Source: a virus (taxonomy: Duplodnaviria; Heunggongvirae; Uroviricota; Caudoviricetes). Taken from it: DNA of 27,028 bases. Below, piece by piece: positions 11,590 to 17,888 of this stretch; the stretch's first letter is position 1, and each line of letters opens with the position of its first letter. Location of the stretch: IMG/VR virus record IMGVR_UViG_2579778989_000013. One strand, 5' to 3'. The notes beneath the pieces were generated by a model. It saw only the letters and a program-made list of their open reading frames with translations, made no database searches and was not told the DNA's origin. A program made the position numbers and the translations under genes.

Positions 11590-12360
11590 TCACTTTTCCG
11601 ACACAATACGACCGGATGAATCGACAATCTGTCGAACAATATCCCGGTGCTTGTTCAGCTCCCGCAGCGCGGCGCAGACTCGCTCCCACTTCTGGACCTG
11701 TTTTTTGGCGCGACGAAGTTCTCGACTGGCAGCATGCAGCGATGGAAGCATCACCGAACTGGCAGATTTTTCGGTGAATGATGGAACTTCTCGGATAAAC
11801 TCATCTGTACTGGCCTTTGCCGTGCTCTCTGATGCCAACGGAAAACGATTCATTTCATCGCCTGCCGCGCTGTTTTCTGCGTCATGGTGTGATTGCTTAT
11901 TCTGCGATGATAAAGCGCTCAAATCGCCGTTTTCGACATCAGGCATTTTGTAACGGAATTTTCCGTTGCTGATCTCGCGTACCAGGCGTCTCGTTGCTGT
12001 TACCACCGCCAACGTGGAAGCAACCTTACGAGTGCTGACACCGAACTTCCCCGCCAGTTCCTCACACGTTTTAGCCCCATCCTGATCGATAAACTCAATC
12101 ATCATGTCTGCGGTAACTTTTGGAGCGACCTCTTCGGTTACCACATCCGGCGCTTCAGGTTGTAGTGCCTGCCCTTCGGTTACCCCGGCTTCACCTTCGA
12201 CAGCCAGAAACCAGGTGTGACCCGTTTTATCAACAACGCCATTTTTTTTGAGCTCCCACAGTTCGTTGAGAACTTCTTCACGGCTGATATCAAGCCGCGC
12301 CGCCAGTTCAACAGAATTGGCTTTTCCCATCGCTTTCAGTGCATGCAATACGGTTTCCAT
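11590..12360 (-). CDS. hypothetical phage protein with N-terminal winged-helix-like region (possibly DUF1627 family)
   Basis: Track ORF, 256 aa; follows the DnaC-like gene as in Stx-type prophages; family assignment from memory only. Confidence 0.55.
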   Translation of the reverse strand: METVLHALKAMGKANSVELAARLDISREEVLNELWELKKNGVVDKTGHTWFLAVEGEAGVTEGQALQPEAPDVVTEEVAPKVTADMMIEFIDQDGAKTCEELAGKFGVSTRKVASTLAVVTATRRLVREISNGKFRYKMPDVENGDLSALSSQNKQSHHDAENSAAGDEMNRFPLASESTAKASTDEFIREVPSFTEKSASSVMLPSLHAASRELRRAKKQVQKWERVCAALRELNKHRDIVRQIVDSSGRIVSEK

Positions 12361-12385
12361 CGAAAATTTACCTCGTCAAAAATTC

Positions 12386-13126
12386 TCACATACCCTGACG
12401 TCCAACGTTTGACCGCCAGCTCTCCCAGTTAAAATTCACCCAACGACCACCGTTCATGGTCATCCGGTCCATAATCCTCTCACCAAGAAGCGTGCTCATT
12501 GCGGCATGATTCAGGTTTGTCAGCATCCCGACACTGCGCAGTGATGCCGTCCGGCGGTCAACAATCTGGTGCAGTACCACCTGCTCGTTTTTCGTCTCAC
12601 GCTGGATGCCAATTTCGTCAAGAACCAGGAGGTCCACTTCGCACAGTTCACGCAAAAATTTTTCCCCTGACAGTCCGTCGTCATAGCTGGCATGTAACGC
12701 GCTCATCACATCCGCCACGGTGACCACTATCACGGATTTACCGGCCTTCAGCAGACGATTACCCACAGCCGCCGCCAGATGATTTTTTCCGGTTCCCGGA
12801 TTCCCGCTGAACACGAAGTTTGTATAACCGGTCATTAATTCATCGACAATGGATTTCGCCTGGCTCAGAGCATGGCGCTGACCGTCGTTCTGCACCCGGT
12901 AGTTCCCGAATGAGCACTTCCTGTGAAGCGGCTGGATGCCCGAACGATTCAGGATTTTTTCAACCCGCGTCTGGTGATTCTGGCGGTTAACTTCCTCGCT
13001 GCGCTTCCGGCCCTCAGCCAGTTGCCATTCCCGCCATTCGTCGGTCGTCCGGAACGGTGCTGCCACGTGCGGTGGTGCCAGACGGCGCACCCGTTCAAGA
13101 ATCCCTCCTGTCGAAATGTTTTTCAT
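12386..13126 (-). CDS. DnaC/IstB-like AAA+ helicase loader (phage replication protein)
   Basis: Walker A FSGNPGTGKNHLAAAVG and Walker B LLVLDEIG; located directly after the initiator gene. Confidence 0.85.
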   Translation of the reverse strand: MKNISTGGILERVRRLAPPHVAAPFRTTDEWREWQLAEGRKRSEEVNRQNHQTRVEKILNRSGIQPLHRKCSFGNYRVQNDGQRHALSQAKSIVDELMTGYTNFVFSGNPGTGKNHLAAAVGNRLLKAGKSVIVVTVADVMSALHASYDDGLSGEKFLRELCEVDLLVLDEIGIQRETKNEQVVLHQIVDRRTASLRSVGMLTNLNHAAMSTLLGERIMDRMTMNGGRWVNFNWESWRSNVGRQGM

Positions 13127-13132
13127 GGCTGA

Positions 13133-14215
13133 TTACCCCCTGAAACCCGGCGGAATTTCGGTGTCCGGTTCAGAAATGTGATTCACGCAACGCAGGCTGA
13201 CTGCGCCAGCCTTCGGCAGCGACCACGGATTTTCGAAATTCCTGTTCGGGCCAAAAAACGTCGATGCCTGCTGAACAAATTCAGTTCCCGCTTTCCCGGT
13301 AGCCTCCAGGTATCTTGCGTAACGCCTCACGCCATCCAGCACGACATCCGGTGACACCCCTTCGCGTAATCTGGCCCTCCAGGCATTGAACGCGGATTTC
13401 TTCGGGTTTGACCCTGCCCGATGCGGATATTCACGCCAGACCCGTTCGAACACGTCAGGATAATCAACTCGTCCCGCAGACGGTCCCGGCATCGCCCGGG
13501 TTAACCCAATCGGCTTCCCGCTCATCGCGGAATCGGCTTCAGGCTGCTGCGGTTGGCGTTGTTGCTCCGGTTCGACGATCAGCACCTGCTGCACACAACG
13601 CCCGGAATCTGCTTCCGGTGTCGTGCCATCTGGTCCTGGACGTTCAGTCAGAACAGGACAAAAATCCCCCTGTGGGTCCGTGGCGATTTTTTCGCCATGG
13701 ACCAGAAGGGTTTTATCCCTTTCCTGTTCCTGTTCCTGTTCCTGTTCTTGGCTTGAAAGGGGCTCTGAAGGGGCTTCAATTTTCCGACATGATTCACGTC
13801 TGACATCCAGGTGGAAATCATCCTTATATCTATCATAAAAGGATGATAAAAAAGGATTTTCCAGCAACGCGGAATATTCATTTCTTACCCCAGCACAACG
13901 GTTATCGCCAGGTTTCAGCGATTCACCAACCTGCCATGCTGCCATTTCATGCACCCATACAACCTCAGAATCATGGTCATAGCTGCAAAAACCAGCCTCG
14001 CAAGCCATTTGAAGCCCCTTAGAAGCCCCTTCAGGAGCAAGTCCGGTTTCGTGAGCAATGTACAAAACAGGCAGGTAATAAAGGCCCAGCATATTGGAAT
14101 GAGGCGAGGTCATCATATACAACGCCACTACCATACATTCCGGACCAGACTTCCTTAGTTTTCGCCCTGTATCGCCTAACCAGAACTGAGGTGAAATTGT
14201 TGCGTAATTACGCAT
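13133..14215 (-). CDS. phage replication initiator / replisome organiser (O-like), 360 aa
   Basis: Position between cII and the DnaC-like loader; RBS GAGGGGA; internal QE-repeat linker and internal repeats/AT-rich patch suggest an ori within the gene. Family not firmly identified. Confidence 0.7.
   Translation of the reverse strand: MRNYATISPQFWLGDTGRKLRKSGPECMVVALYMMTSPHSNMLGLYYLPVLYIAHETGLAPEGASKGLQMACEAGFCSYDHDSEVVWVHEMAAWQVGESLKPGDNRCAGVRNEYSALLENPFLSSFYDRYKDDFHLDVRRESCRKIEAPSEPLSSQEQEQEQEQERDKTLLVHGEKIATDPQGDFCPVLTERPGPDGTTPEADSGRCVQQVLIVEPEQQRQPQQPEADSAMSGKPIGLTRAMPGPSAGRVDYPDVFERVWREYPHRAGSNPKKSAFNAWRARLREGVSPDVVLDGVRRYARYLEATGKAGTEFVQQASTFFGPNRNFENPWSLPKAGAVSLRCVNHISEPDTEIPPGFRG
13723..13746. 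repeat. hexanucleotide microsatellite (CCTGTT)x4 inside the initiator gene, encoding (QE)n
   Basis: Perfect tandem cctgtt copies at 13723-13746 with degenerate flanks; in-frame, read as EQEQEQEQ on the minus strand. Confidence 0.8.
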
Positions 14216-14247
14216 AGTCCCCTCGCATACAAGATTTACTCCATACC

Positions 14248-14404
14248 GCAGACGGTCCCGGTATCTCCCGGGTTAACCCAATCGGCTTCAGGCTGCTGCG
14301 GTTGGTGTGACTGCACATTGGTGTGACTGCACATCTTCACAGACGGTCCCGGTATCTCCGGGTTAACCCAATCGGCTTCAGGCTGCTGCGGTTGGTGTTG
14401 TTGC
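14248..14404. repeat. two tandem partial copies (about 60 bp each) of an internal initiator-gene segment, located in the cII-O intergenic region
   Basis: cgcagacggtcccggtatctcccgggttaacccaatcggcttcaggctgctgcggttggtg at 14248-14307 and again at 14340-14404; both match 13475-13565 inside the initiator gene. Separated by a duplicated 14-mer gtgtgactgcacat. Confidence 0.8.
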
Positions 14405-14468
14405 TGGCGAAATTCTTCCAGATGTGGCAGAATTATTCCCGTGTATTGCTCCATGCCCTGCCTGAATA

Positions 14469-14765
14469 TCAGATATTCATCAGGATTTGCTCAGAACGTC
14501 CGGCCCCAACCGGACGTTTTTTATTTGCATGAACGTTAATGGCATGCTGGAAAGCCCGGCTGATCGGACTGATATCAGATGCCATCTGAAACGCGCATAA
14601 AATCGCCGCGATGTATCGCCAGTCGGTACGACTGACCTTCGATTCATGACAGCCAATCATCTTCGCCAGTCCCCTTTGCGTCAGAGCTGACAGGTTGATA
14701 AGTAAATCCGTTTCAGCGCGATCGATATCGCGCTGTGACAGTTTGCTGTAACTTGTTTGTTCCAT
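14469..14765 (-). CDS. cII: CII-like transcriptional activator
   Basis: Track ORF; C-terminus NKKRPVGAGRSEQILMNI resembles lambda CII NKKRPAATERSEQIQMEF; located after cro and nutR. Confidence 0.75.
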   Translation of the reverse strand: MEQTSYSKLSQRDIDRAETDLLINLSALTQRGLAKMIGCHESKVSRTDWRYIAAILCAFQMASDISPISRAFQHAINVHANKKRPVGAGRSEQILMNI

Positions 14766-14850
14766 TTCTTAAGATTTCCAATAGTGAATAGCTAGTTGAA
14801 AGGTATGCGTGGAAACGCATATGGCCTTAGTTGGTCAGATATCTTGGGGC

Positions 14851-14865
14851 TCGCTTTGTCAGCGA
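14851..14865 (-). promoter_or_regulatory. nutR boxB-like hairpin (N-utilisation site)
   Basis: Minus-strand tcgctgacaaagcga between cro and cII shares the 13-mer CGCTGACAAAGCG with the element upstream of N at 18366-18380. Confidence 0.55.
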
Positions 14866-14903
14866 CGTAGGACGAATGTCCATTGTGAAAATAGCGGTGT
14901 TAC

Positions 14904-15131
14904 TTATGCAGCCAGAAGGTTCTTTTTGCTTATTTCAAGCATTTCGCTTGCTTGATATTTGCCACCAGAAATCTCTTCGATTTTTGATGCGTATTTCGTT
15001 TTCCCAAAAAACTCAGTCTTAGGGAGGAAGCCGTTTTTGAGCCACTTATAGACAGCCCTTTCGCTAACTCCACAAGCCTTCGCAACTTCAGGGATGCCGA
15101 CACCTTTAATCGGCTCATCAAGATTTTGCAT
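14904..15131 (-). CDS. cro: Cro-like HTH repressor (75 aa)
   Basis: Divergent from cI; RBS AAGGA; HTH GIPEVAKACGVSERAVYKWL; internal start within track ORF 14904..15164. Confidence 0.7.
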   Translation of the reverse strand: MQNLDEPIKGVGIPEVAKACGVSERAVYKWLKNGFLPKTEFFGKTKYASKIEEISGGKYQASEMLEISKKNLLAA

Positions 15132-15209
15132 AGGGATATCCTTTTTCGTACTTTCAGTACGCATTATGATTGAACTGAAAGTTTTTGCAAGTGCTTTAGT
15201 ATCGTACTC
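15132..15209. promoter_or_regulatory. OR-type divergent promoter/operator region between cro and cI
   Basis: 78-bp intergenic region containing the palindrome CGTACT-TTC-AGTACG and further TCGTAC-containing repeats. Confidence 0.5.
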
Positions 15210-15917
15210 ATGGTTCAGAATGAAAAAGTGCGCAAAGAATTCGCCCAGCGGCTAGCGCAAGCCTGTAAAGAAGCTGGTCTTGATGAACATGGTAGGGGAA
15301 TGGCTATAGCCCGTGCCCTTTCTCTTTCGTCCAAAGGCGTTAGCAAATGGTTTAATGCTGAGTCTTTACCGCGTCAGGAAAAAATGAATGCGCTTGCGAA
15401 ATTTCTAAACGTTGATGTTGTTTGGCTTCAGCACGGCACTTCGTTAAATGGAGCGAATGATGAAGATACTCTTTCATTTGTTGGCAAATTAAAAAAAGGG
15501 TTAGTGCGCGTGGTTGGTGAGGCAATTCTTGGTGTTGATGGTGCCATCGAGATGACCGAAGAGCGCGATGGGTGGCTCAAAATTTATAGCGATGATCCAG
15601 ATGCCTTTGGCCTTCGTGTGAAAGGAGACAGCATGTGGCCCAGAATAAAATCAGGAGAATATGTACTCATTGAGCCTAACACCAAAGTATTCCCGGGTGA
15701 TGAGGTGTTTGTCAGAACCGTTGAAGGACACAACATGATTAAGGTTCTTGGCTATGACAGAGATGGAGAATACCAATTTACAAGCATTAACCAGGATCAC
15801 AGGCCTATAACGTTGCCTTATCATCAAGTAGCAAAGGTGGAGTATGTAGCTGGTATTCTGAAGCAATCTCGCCATCTGGATGACATCGAGGCAAGGGAGT
15901 GGCTGAAAAGTTCGTGA
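15210..15917 (+). CDS. cI: CI-like repressor (N-terminal HTH plus C-terminal S24 LexA-type autopeptidase domain)
   Basis: Track ORF, 235 aa; S24 motifs GDSMWP and downstream Lys (NMIKVL); N-terminal HTH; divergent from cro. Confidence 0.85.
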   Translation: MVQNEKVRKEFAQRLAQACKEAGLDEHGRGMAIARALSLSSKGVSKWFNAESLPRQEKMNALAKFLNVDVVWLQHGTSLNGANDEDTLSFVGKLKKGLVRVVGEAILGVDGAIEMTEERDGWLKIYSDDPDAFGLRVKGDSMWPRIKSGEYVLIEPNTKVFPGDEVFVRTVEGHNMIKVLGYDRDGEYQFTSINQDHRPITLPYHQVAKVEYVAGILKQSRHLDDIEAREWLKSS

Positions 15918-15977
15918 CTTCATCGTCACATAGCTGGTAACCAGTGGCCAGAAGAAACGTTTGGGTGAGGAGGATAG

Positions 15978-16319
15978 ATGGCGTTCACTGACCTTGAATA
16001 TCAAGCGGTCAAAAAAGAAGTTCACCAATTCATTGAAAGCATAAGGCCGCCTGAACATATCCGCAATGAACTGGATATTGTTTATAGCATCAATGACCAA
16101 ACGATAGATATCGGCGAACAGCGCCCCGTGTGGCAGGGCAACCCAGGTGAAACAAACATCCTGCCATCAGCAAGAATCAAGTACATACGTTCTCTGGATA
16201 GATGGAAAATCTATTGGATGCGGAAGGATATGAAATGGCATCAGTACAGTACTGAACTTTCGCTGACTGATGCGCTTGAGCTTGTGCGTGCTGACCCGGA
16301 TTGCTGCTTCTTCGGATGA
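15978..16319 (+). CDS. hypothetical protein (113 aa), first gene downstream of cI
   Basis: Track ORF with strong RBS GAGGAGG; same strand as cI; no motif recognised. Confidence 0.6.
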   Translation: MAFTDLEYQAVKKEVHQFIESIRPPEHIRNELDIVYSINDQTIDIGEQRPVWQGNPGETNILPSARIKYIRSLDRWKIYWMRKDMKWHQYSTELSLTDALELVRADPDCCFFG

Positions 16320-16386
16320 GTGAAGAGACGTTTGGATGATGGATGGTCGCAGAGATGCGGCCTGATTCTAAAATAGGATATAAAAA

Positions 16387-16848
16387 ATGAGAATACTAGG
16401 TGTTAGAGCGGCGCCCAAAGTTACATCTTTTGTTGTATATTGCACTAATGAGTCTGCACTCAAATGTGTTGATGTTATTAAAATACCTTCGACCTTAGAC
16501 ACACCAGAAAAATTAAAGTATGTGAGAAATAACATCCTCGACATTCTTAATTTATATAATGTTGAATTAGCTGCCATACGCGTTACTGAATCAAACTCTG
16601 ATAATCTTAGCATTGACCGCCTTTATATAGAAGCTGTTATTCAAGAAGCATTTTCAAGCAGTGATGTAAGAAAATATTACACTATTAGAAAATCTGGCAT
16701 GAAATCATCATTGAACCTAACAGAGATCGAGTATAAAGAAATATTGAAGTCACACCGCAATATAAATGGAATCGATAATTCTGGTTTTACAACTGAAACA
16801 AATGAAGCTGTTTTGGCTGCTCTATCTGCGGAGGTAAGGGGATGCTAA
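16387..16848 (+). CDS. hypothetical protein (153 aa), translationally coupled to the downstream kinase gene
   Basis: Track ORF; its 3' end overlaps the kinase start by 7 nt; AT-rich codon usage unlike flanking phage genes. Confidence 0.55.
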   Translation: MRILGVRAAPKVTSFVVYCTNESALKCVDVIKIPSTLDTPEKLKYVRNNILDILNLYNVELAAIRVTESNSDNLSIDRLYIEAVIQEAFSSSDVRKYYTIRKSGMKSSLNLTEIEYKEILKSHRNINGIDNSGFTTETNEAVLAALSAEVRGC

Positions 16849-17888
16849 CTCCATACAAAAGAGCTGATGTAGAATTCGAATGGATTAGTGATCTAGAAGA
16901 ACAGGGTTGTTTTTCAAAAGTATATCTGGCTCATGACAGACACCTAGCTCATGACTTGGTGATTAAAGAAATAGAAAAAAAAGAAAACACTAACCACGAC
17001 GACTACTTTAATGAAGCAAGGCTTCTCTATAAACATGCACATCCAAATATTGTGCAAGTTCAGTATGCTGCTCAATGTGAGAGCAATATCTATATAGCCA
17101 TGCCATTTTATCATAATGGTTCGCTAAACCAATTAATGAAAAAAAATAATCTTACAAGCAGGGAGATAATACGGTATTCCATTCAATTTTTAAGTGGACT
17201 TTATCATATACACTCAAAAGGTCTTATGCATTTTGATATAAAACCTAATAACATTATGATATCAAACAGAAATGAGGCCATGCTATCTGACTTTGGATTA
17301 TCTCAGTTAGTCAATGAGGAATCGAGAGCTGCGCCTGAGTTTGGATATCATTTTCATGTGCCACCGGAATATTTTTCTTTATCAACAAATGATTATAATT
17401 TCACATATGACATATATCAGGCAGGATTAACCATATATAGAATGTGTGTTGGACATGATAATTTTGAAAGAGAAAGATCTGCATTTAGCACGATTGAACA
17501 ACTCAGAGAGTCGATAATTAATGGCTGCTATCCATTAAAAGAGTATCCTCCCCATATACATAAAAAATTAATAACAATAGTGAACAAATGCATTCATGTA
17601 GATCCAAATGAAAGATATCAATCCGTACTAGATGTACTAAACGATCTCTCAGCTATAAGTGATGGCGTTCTTGACTGGCGTCTACAGATGACGAAACCAA
17701 CTAACGGCACATGCGAATGGCAAAAAAAGTCTGGGGACGCTATACTGTCTATAGTTTTTGACGCAGAAAATTCGTCTACTACTGGTTTTCGTTTATACGA
17801 TGATGGGCGGAAAAGGCGTGCTACGAACTTAACAATATCCTCAGGATGTACCCCTACAAAACTGTATAGGTTATTAAAGGATAACTGA
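16842..17888 (+). CDS. Hanks-type (eukaryotic-like) Ser/Thr protein kinase, 348 aa
   Basis: Track ORF with RBS GGAGGTAAGGGG. Kinase subdomains: Gly-rich loop region EEQGCFSKVY, lysine in LVIKEI, catalytic loop HFDIKPNN (non-RD), SDFG, VPPEY; about 90-aa C-terminal extension of unknown function. Confidence 0.85.
   Translation: MLTPYKRADVEFEWISDLEEQGCFSKVYLAHDRHLAHDLVIKEIEKKENTNHDDYFNEARLLYKHAHPNIVQVQYAAQCESNIYIAMPFYHNGSLNQLMKKNNLTSREIIRYSIQFLSGLYHIHSKGLMHFDIKPNNIMISNRNEAMLSDFGLSQLVNEESRAAPEFGYHFHVPPEYFSLSTNDYNFTYDIYQAGLTIYRMCVGHDNFERERSAFSTIEQLRESIINGCYPLKEYPPHIHKKLITIVNKCIHVDPNERYQSVLDVLNDLSAISDGVLDWRLQMTKPTNGTCEWQKKSGDAILSIVFDAENSSTTGFRLYDDGRKRRATNLTISSGCTPTKLYRLLKDN

Follow-up and report, generated by a model that had tools for sequence, protein, structure and literature searches.

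A variable tandem repeat between cII and the replication initiator gene of an Eru4-type lambdoid prophage, and its probable origin in initiator linker DNA

Genes and repeats at the locus

We analyzed the interval between cII and the replication initiator gene in a 27,028-nucleotide stretch of Caudoviricetes DNA (IMG/VR record IMGVR_UViG_2579778989_000013), the whole of which is referred to as the window. The interval belongs to the minus-strand early-right operon of a lambdoid prophage, in which cII is followed by a repeat array, the initiator gene and a DnaC-like loader; a DUF1627 gene comes last in the listed gene order, after the loader. A preliminary description of the sequence had placed an element of about 60 bp twice between cII and the initiator start, with a longer variant inside the initiator gene. 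The minus-strand gene order and all three copies were recovered, the internal one being 23 bp longer than the upstream units. The array and the genes around it are as follows.

14340–14406, minus strand: upstream copy A, a short-form unit beside cII and pO, derived from the initiator linker segment
14302–14333, minus strand: spacer between both units, a perfect 16-bp tandem pair (TGTGCAGTCACACCAA twice, minus strand)
14246–14308, minus strand: upstream copy B, a short-form unit beside the initiator, ending 30 nucleotides before the initiator ATG
13474–13567, minus strand: internal copy and presumed source, long form, in the initiator gene (amino acids ~216–246, inter-domain linker)
14469–14765, minus strand: cII (Pfam Phage_CII, PF05269, E = 3.8e-26)
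14236–14454, minus strand: 72-codon open reading frame (ORF) overlapping the array, annotated as a hypothetical protein (PHROG 2751)
13133–14215, minus strand: replication initiator, 360 amino acids, a chimera (phrog_1701 over its full length, phrog_3729 over the C-terminal half)
12386–13126, minus strand: DnaC/IstB-like loader

The repeat search delimited copy B as 14246/14249–14308 and copy A as 14340–14398, with homology of the latter to the internal copy extending to 14406. Both upstream copies share a 41-nucleotide core that is 100% identical, are spaced 90/91 bp from start to start, and differ by one 1-bp indel (CCCGGG versus CCGGG). The 90-bp period is taken from the repeat search; Tandem Repeats Finder was silent, with fewer than ~1.8 full copies present. 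Compared with the upstream units, the internal copy shows 92–93% identity over the first 30–49 nucleotides, a 23-bp indel aside, and carries these 23 extra bp between two GAAGCCGAT(T) direct repeats. Lacking the 23 bp, both upstream units are out of the initiator's reading frame, so that they read QQPEADWVNPGDTGTVCG where the initiator frame gives QQPEADSAMSGKPIGLTRAMPGPSAG. The upstream units match 13474–13567 and share with it the bases GATTGGGTTAACCC and ACCGTCTG, which are specific to the lineage of the window (group A, see below).

The spacer had been described as a duplicated 14-mer. Its duplication is real, and the repeated element is a 16-mer, TTGGTGTGACTGCACA, occurring as a perfect tandem pair of which the first 6–7 nucleotides overlap the end of copy B. 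It is found twice in the sequence against 0.23 expected matches, a number reached in none of 100 shuffles. A chance origin of the repeats is excluded, and an exact repeat of 41–60 nucleotides needs no statistics. The 16-mer pair looks like the deletion junction of a linker of the phage Tritos or group B kind (TGTGCAG plus TCACACCAAC).

From cII through the ORF and the initiator to the DnaC-like gene, the block is 97.8% identical to Shigella phage 75/02 Stx (NC_029120), and identities of 98–99% were found to the Shigella phages POCJ13 and 75/02 Stx and the E. coli phages PhiR5_2 and phiSTEC1589. As the type (representative) phage, 75/02 Stx defines the Eru4 replication region of Shiga toxin (Stx) phages, a region typed by its proteins, the first of which is termed "of unknown function" (PMC8951638, Fagerlund et al., 2022). 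A term search of that paper returned neither "repeat" nor "iteron", and both Eru papers are silent on repeats, iterons and the Eru4 origin. Among the papers citing POCJ13, none is concerned with the array region, judged by titles and abstracts. In lambda itself, the end of cII (38653) is followed by the start of O (38686) without any comparable insert, in line with the earlier remark that these two genes are adjacent.

Copy number, distribution and recombination of the array

We sorted 84 related loci by the N-terminal domain of the initiator into groups A, B and C. Every group A locus in this set (97–100% N-domain identity, window-like) contains one or two upstream units. With the further loci and genomes of group A, the following alleles were distinguished.

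One unit: L007, L015, L019, L023 and L028, and 5 of 13 metagenome loci
Two units, the commonest allele: the window, POCJ13, 75/02 Stx, 26 other viral loci, and 8 of 13 metagenome loci
Three short units (90 bp): L006, strain TOE17
Three long units (113 bp, the 23 bp kept): L005, strain 23CRST047

Unit size is 60–83 bp, and the period is 90 bp for short and 113 bp for long units. The number of 16-mers differs as well among the alleles found in the protein database, which have one or extra 16-mers (P0002, P0004). The genes flanking the array in L005 differ from those of the window by 0–5%, and all array variation must therefore be recent. In L005, the long units seem nearer to the ancestral form. 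This locus has CCTGATGCC in its upstream as well as its internal copies, where the window has CCTGAAGCC throughout; this one shared lineage-specific base suggests gene conversion between upstream and internal copies.

Group B initiators (78–80% N-domain identity, 361–371 amino acids) have a long linker of the same kind with one internal copy; their genes are preceded by different upstream genes, without cII, and by zero upstream units in ~31 viral loci. Group C (72–74% identity, ~302 amino acids, from Citrobacter and Raoultella) lacks the long linker and likewise has zero upstream units in the 84-locus set. Among 5426 complete E. coli genomes, the group B gene was found in 530 and the group A element in 81. 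Loci of the Tritos type, which share the linker and C-terminal module, have an upstream copy in 0 of 80 cases. On this comparison the array is confined to one clade, the Eru4 module of 75/02 Stx, POCJ13 and E. coli prophages, and this clade is shallow because the L005 flanking genes are 95–100% identical to those of the window. Since the array is absent from group B, group C and Tritos-type loci, it is not required by the initiator type, the linker or the host. Absence from related phages had been named at the outset as the finding that would count against a function, and it is what the sequence comparison returns.

The initiator protein has no Pfam match and is covered over its full length by PHROG 1701 ("DnaD-like helicase loader"). 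Its N-terminal 155 amino acids are 70–80% identical to prophage-encoded proteins from Citrobacter, from Raoultella and from many viral contigs; from amino acid 165 on it is 64% identical to the Tritos replication protein, the N-terminal domain of which is unrelated to that of the window initiator. Judged by these matches, the protein is a chimera of a Citrobacter/Raoultella-type N-terminal DNA-binding domain with a Tritos-type linker and C-terminal domain. The duplicated segment (amino acids ~216–246) falls between the matches to phrog_25210 (amino acids 1–188) and phrog_26426 (amino acids 248–337). It is wholly absent from the ~302-residue group C proteins, and a –1/+1 indel pair puts 42 nucleotides of it in different frames in groups A and B, so that the segment is to be regarded as a loosely constrained linker. 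This assignment is based on the PHROG domain boundaries, the absence from group C and the compensated A/B frameshift.

The compensated –1/+1 frameshift was located by comparing 13478–13535 with L043 3205–3262. The same ~42 nucleotides encode KPIGLTRAMPGPSA in the lineage of the window and EADRVVPENTGRPV in group B and Tritos, so that even a full replacement of the residues is tolerated in this part of the protein. At the boundary of domain and linker (13721–13747) a hexamer repeat, TTCCTG × 4.5, encodes EQEQEQEQ; intact initiator lengths of 358–366 amino acids in near-identical loci suggest that the hexamer copy number varies too. The GAAGCCGAT motif recurs in the linker, in the window (13508–13615) as well as in L043 (3106–3235) and L001, the Tritos replication gene. 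In Tritos-type and group B genes its copies follow a 24-bp phase, with two pairs 72 bp apart, and 80 Tritos-type loci that are otherwise identical have between 2 and 5 of them. This recurrence may reflect an EADS peptide repeat or an origin repeat of the Tritos-type replisome organiser; the N-terminal domains of all 80 loci are 99–100% identical to the query, which leaves no power for a test of co-variation with GAAGCCGAT.

A product of recombination between the copies is present in L004 (E. coli SW071619, 2160–2571). Its junction is of the upstream type on the left and of the internal type on the right, and its initiator has lost the N-terminal domain and is annotated as a pseudogene by RefSeq. 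From its structure, L004 represents a natural case of prophage immobilisation through the upstream/internal repeat pair. The pair would thus be a built-in route to initiator loss and chromosomal fixation of these prophages. In the table of matches, a second strain, SW07163, has an L004-like structure.

Origin candidates, the overlapping ORF and the oop/pO region

The preliminary description had proposed an iteron-like array, serving as origin or in autoregulation. Its absence from the sister lineages, its base composition, its motifs and its period do not support this. Iterons would be repeats of ~17–22 bp about two helical turns apart, and the units of 60–83 bp with a period of 90 or 113 bp do not conform to this; the only short repeat in the array is the 16-mer pair, itself variable in number. 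Where an adjoining AT-rich unwinding region would be expected, the G + C fraction is 0.55–0.62 across 14210–14419. Nor does the array co-vary with the DNA-binding domain of the initiator, as groups B and C, 72–80% identical there, have zero upstream copies. No DnaA box lies within 2 kb of the array, and the GAAGGGGCT motif is absent from it.

In a wider form of this proposal, the units would be extra iteron-like sites for the initiator or a host replication factor, acting within an origin, as an autoregulatory operator, or jointly with the internal copy in handcuffing or titration. The source segment does lie in linker-coding DNA, where the lambda ori iterons are found, and each unit contains a perfect palindrome of 10 bp (GGGTTAACCC) together with one GAAGCCGATT motif, the latter phased at 24 bp in the linkers of Tritos-type and group B genes; that no allele without units was seen would fit as well. 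However, neither groups B and C, whose N-domain is of the same type, nor any of the 80 Tritos-type loci have the array, which varies freely in copy number, in unit length (90 or 113 bp) and in its count of 16-mers. It also lacks an AT-rich flank, a DnaA box and GAAGGGGCT. The palindrome GGGTTAACCC is absent from the internal copies of group B and Tritos. The GAAGCCGATT motif occurs five times in 13508–14379, but its enrichment in the window is not significant (6 versus 2.4 expected; 7 of 100 shuffles reach 6), and the excess can be explained by the duplication itself and the EADS peptide repeat. We therefore regard binding sites of this kind as unlikely. About equally doubtful is a variant in which the array is a cis element whose dose is set by copy number, derived from origin-like DNA of the Tritos-type linker (GAAGCCGAT with the GGGTTAACCC palindrome) and binding the initiator of the resident or a co-resident prophage, or a host factor. 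If this were true, the units would pair with or titrate the internal copy, unit number would set replication or initiator expression, and the upstream–internal deletion would be an off switch that locks the prophage in place.

Better candidates for an origin are found within the initiator gene.

14009–14032, minus strand: candidate iteron cluster 1, GAAGGGGCT twice with 11-bp spacing
13790–13879, between both clusters: AT-rich stretch, candidate unwinding region (G + C fraction 0.32–0.35)
13756–13779, plus strand: candidate iteron cluster 2, (G/A)AAGGGGCT twice with 11-bp spacing

The AT-rich stretch is the only such trough of the area. GAAGGGGCT has 15 matches in the window (at most one mismatch) versus 5.0 ± 2.4 expected. 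Groups A, B and C all have both clusters, at matching positions of the gene (L008, 3183–3210 and 3438–3465; L043, nucleotides 2684–2706 and 2940–2975). In group B, cluster 2 consists of three copies in three different reading frames; it is inverted in group A, where it encodes EAPSEPL and not EGASKGL, and direct in the sister lineages. The motif is absent from Tritos, whose N-terminal domain differs. We consider GAAGGGGCT an iteron candidate because it survives frame changes and inversion and tracks the DNA-binding domain. The clusters and the AT-rich stretch are probably the origin of the Eru4-type replicon, which constitutes a prediction for the still unmapped origin of this replicon, found in Stx1 phages of Shigella and E. 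coli.

The 72-codon ORF, omitted from the preliminary description, is annotated as a coding sequence in several phage, GenBank and RefSeq records. These annotations would be correct if it encoded a real small protein, or it could be a translated leader (an upstream ORF) that tunes translation of the initiator. Consistent with this, the frame stays open in the short alleles of one, two and three units because 90 is divisible by 3, and most alleles end 20 nucleotides before the initiator ATG, or just past it and overlapping it. Against it, neither frame nor length is conserved: ORF alleles fall into nine length classes (42, 46, 51, 58, 62, 72, 76, 88 and 102 amino acids) with differing C-terminal frames, and in L005, where RefSeq has no annotation for it, the ORF stops after 41 codons, ~275 nucleotides before the initiator ATG. 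A search of 5.8 billion proteins gave 10 clusters only, all from E. coli, with no homologues beyond the E. coli/Shigella clade, and there is no Pfam or NCBIfam match. The ORF is for the most part an out-of-frame reading of initiator DNA; by inspection, point differences between alleles are mostly non-synonymous and the Shine-Dalgarno sequence is weak or badly spaced. Its first ~19 codons overlie the region that aligns with the lambda pO promoter and the oop start, which explains them better, and this part of the ORF is probably kept for pO/oop and not for coding. The alternative raised initially, that the repeats simply encode a real protein, was thus not borne out, and translation of the ORF seems improbable to us. 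It is probably not a conserved gene, and the hypothetical protein (PHROG 2751) in records of Stx phages and E. coli very probably does not correspond to a gene.

The remaining features upstream of the array are the following.

~14404–14436: putative pO-like promoter abutting the right end of the array, placed by alignment and not called by the consensus scan
14441–14523, plus strand: oop-like antisense RNA overlapping the 3′ end of cII, by alignment to lambda oop/pO
14493–14520, plus strand: intrinsic terminator inside the 3′ end of cII, by terminator scan
14904–15164, minus strand: cro-like gene
15210–15917, plus strand: cI-like repressor gene

Assignment of the oop-like RNA follows from an antisense terminator within the cII 3′ end together with sequence similarity, the 3′ half aligning closely to lambda oop. 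An Rfam scan of 12000–16500 (E ≤ 1) gave nothing relevant and no oop match. The alignment puts a TG-preceded CAGAAT (TGgCAGAAT) opposite CATAAT of lambda, at a place where the consensus scan called no promoter; a lambda-like pO would be expected ~80 nucleotides upstream of the terminator.

This neighborhood raises the possibility of a cis-regulatory array, which would serve the pO-like promoter of the oop-like RNA as an upstream element, or would form a structured leader affecting read-through from pR into the replication genes. The right end of the array adjoins the presumed –35 region of the promoter, and the leader between cII and the initiator, ~30 nucleotides in lambda, has grown to 163–412 nucleotides depending on the allele. 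However, leader RNA folding is no better than that of shuffled sequence (z = –0.43), the terminator scan found no terminator-like site in the array, and the pO-like promoter is itself putative, the consensus scan having found none in or beside the array. Free variation in copy number also speaks against a positioned element. Such a role is very unlikely.

Two further observations concern this side of the locus. An 18-nucleotide inverted repeat (78% complementary, 4-nucleotide gap) lies in the 5′ part of cII at 14705–14744, and may be fortuitous or serve in regulation, for example as pRE. Adjoining the cI-like repressor gene, 15978–17888 (plus strand) contains three genes, the equivalents of which in L005 are named by RefSeq as a DUF3024 protein, a RuvC-family protein and a serine/threonine protein kinase (348 amino acids); they may form an accessory or defence cassette expressed in the lysogen.

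A recombination scar turned tandem repeat, and comparison with known systems

We favor the explanation that recombination left a non-coding segmental duplication as a scar in this one lineage, which has since turned into a small variable-number tandem repeat (VNTR), and assign this explanation a probability of roughly 0.68. The notion of a recombination scar, also raised in the preliminary description, finds support in the frameshifted paralogy, the variable copy number and the recombination with the internal copy. Four features to be expected of a scar or VNTR were found: copy number is polymorphic among close relatives with flanks 95–100% identical, the unit is paralogous to another sequence of the same genome, the array is absent from the sister lineages (groups B and C and Tritos-type loci), and L004 provides a recombination product between copies.

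In the sequence of events that we propose, ~95–125 bp of initiator linker-coding DNA would have been placed just upstream of the initiator ribosome-binding site, at the joint of the Eru4-type replication module with the lambda-like cII/oop/pO block. The copied piece would then have lost 23 bp between two GAAGCCGAT repeats and probably ~30 bp more, leaving the 16-mer. Later growth and shrinkage could have occurred by unequal crossing-over or slippage, with a period of 90 bp or 113 bp, and gene conversion involving the internal copy may have held the copies similar. A homologous exchange that joins an upstream unit to the internal one would delete the DNA-binding domain of the initiator and kill the replicon. 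Changes in the number of upstream units appear to be tolerated and may be selectively neutral, and the array probably persists for a mechanical reason, in that the last copy is easily lost only via the lethal deletion.

Several points weigh against this explanation. Alleles without upstream units were not seen in the examined loci and genomes of group A. This is expected if the only easy loss of the last copy is the lethal deletion, but selection for keeping one or more units would produce it too. Of 37 loci, 27 carry an identical two-copy allele, though the flanks are about equally conserved. The 90-bp period leaves the upstream ORF open over one, two and three units, which may be chance or a sign of translation. 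Finally, the 19-codon stub of the ORF, MEQYTGIILPHLEEFRQQ, has no ancestor in 50,697 phage records (tblastn) or in the search of 5.8 billion proteins, with matches in the same clade only; that it may be the 5′ end of a displaced initiator was considered.

If the array is a scar of this kind, it matters little by itself, as a small unstable duplication at a module joint. Its polymorphism of one to three units nevertheless offers a ready strain-typing marker for Eru4-type Stx prophages.

Mosaic-junction remnants and partial gene duplications at module boundaries are familiar from comparative genomics of the lambdoid phages HK97, HK022 and HK620. Like these, the array sits exactly at a joint, that of the cI-cro-cII-oop block with a non-lambda replication module. 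Unlike them, it is a copy of the incoming module's own linker and not a fragment of a displaced gene, and it became a tandem array. With bacterial VNTR loci, as used in multiple-locus VNTR analysis (MLVA), it shares head-to-tail units, one to three copies in genomes 95–100% identical, and a nested variable 16-bp repeat. In contrast to such loci, the unit has a paralogue 770 bp away in an essential phage gene, and recombination with this paralogue inactivates that gene. The closest known replicon is Eru4 of 75/02 Stx, as reflected in the 97.8% identity of the cII-ORF-initiator-DnaC block.

The origin of lambda consists of four 18-bp iterons and an AT-rich region within the linker-coding part of gene O. 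The array resembles it in that the duplicated segment comes from the inter-domain linker-coding DNA of the initiator gene that follows cII. It differs in its units of 60–83 bp, its period of 90 or 113 bp, its extragenic and GC-rich character, its variation in number among near-identical genomes and its absence from sister replicons. The feature of the window that does resemble lambda ori is the pair of GAAGGGGCT clusters with the AT-rich stretch at 13756–14032.

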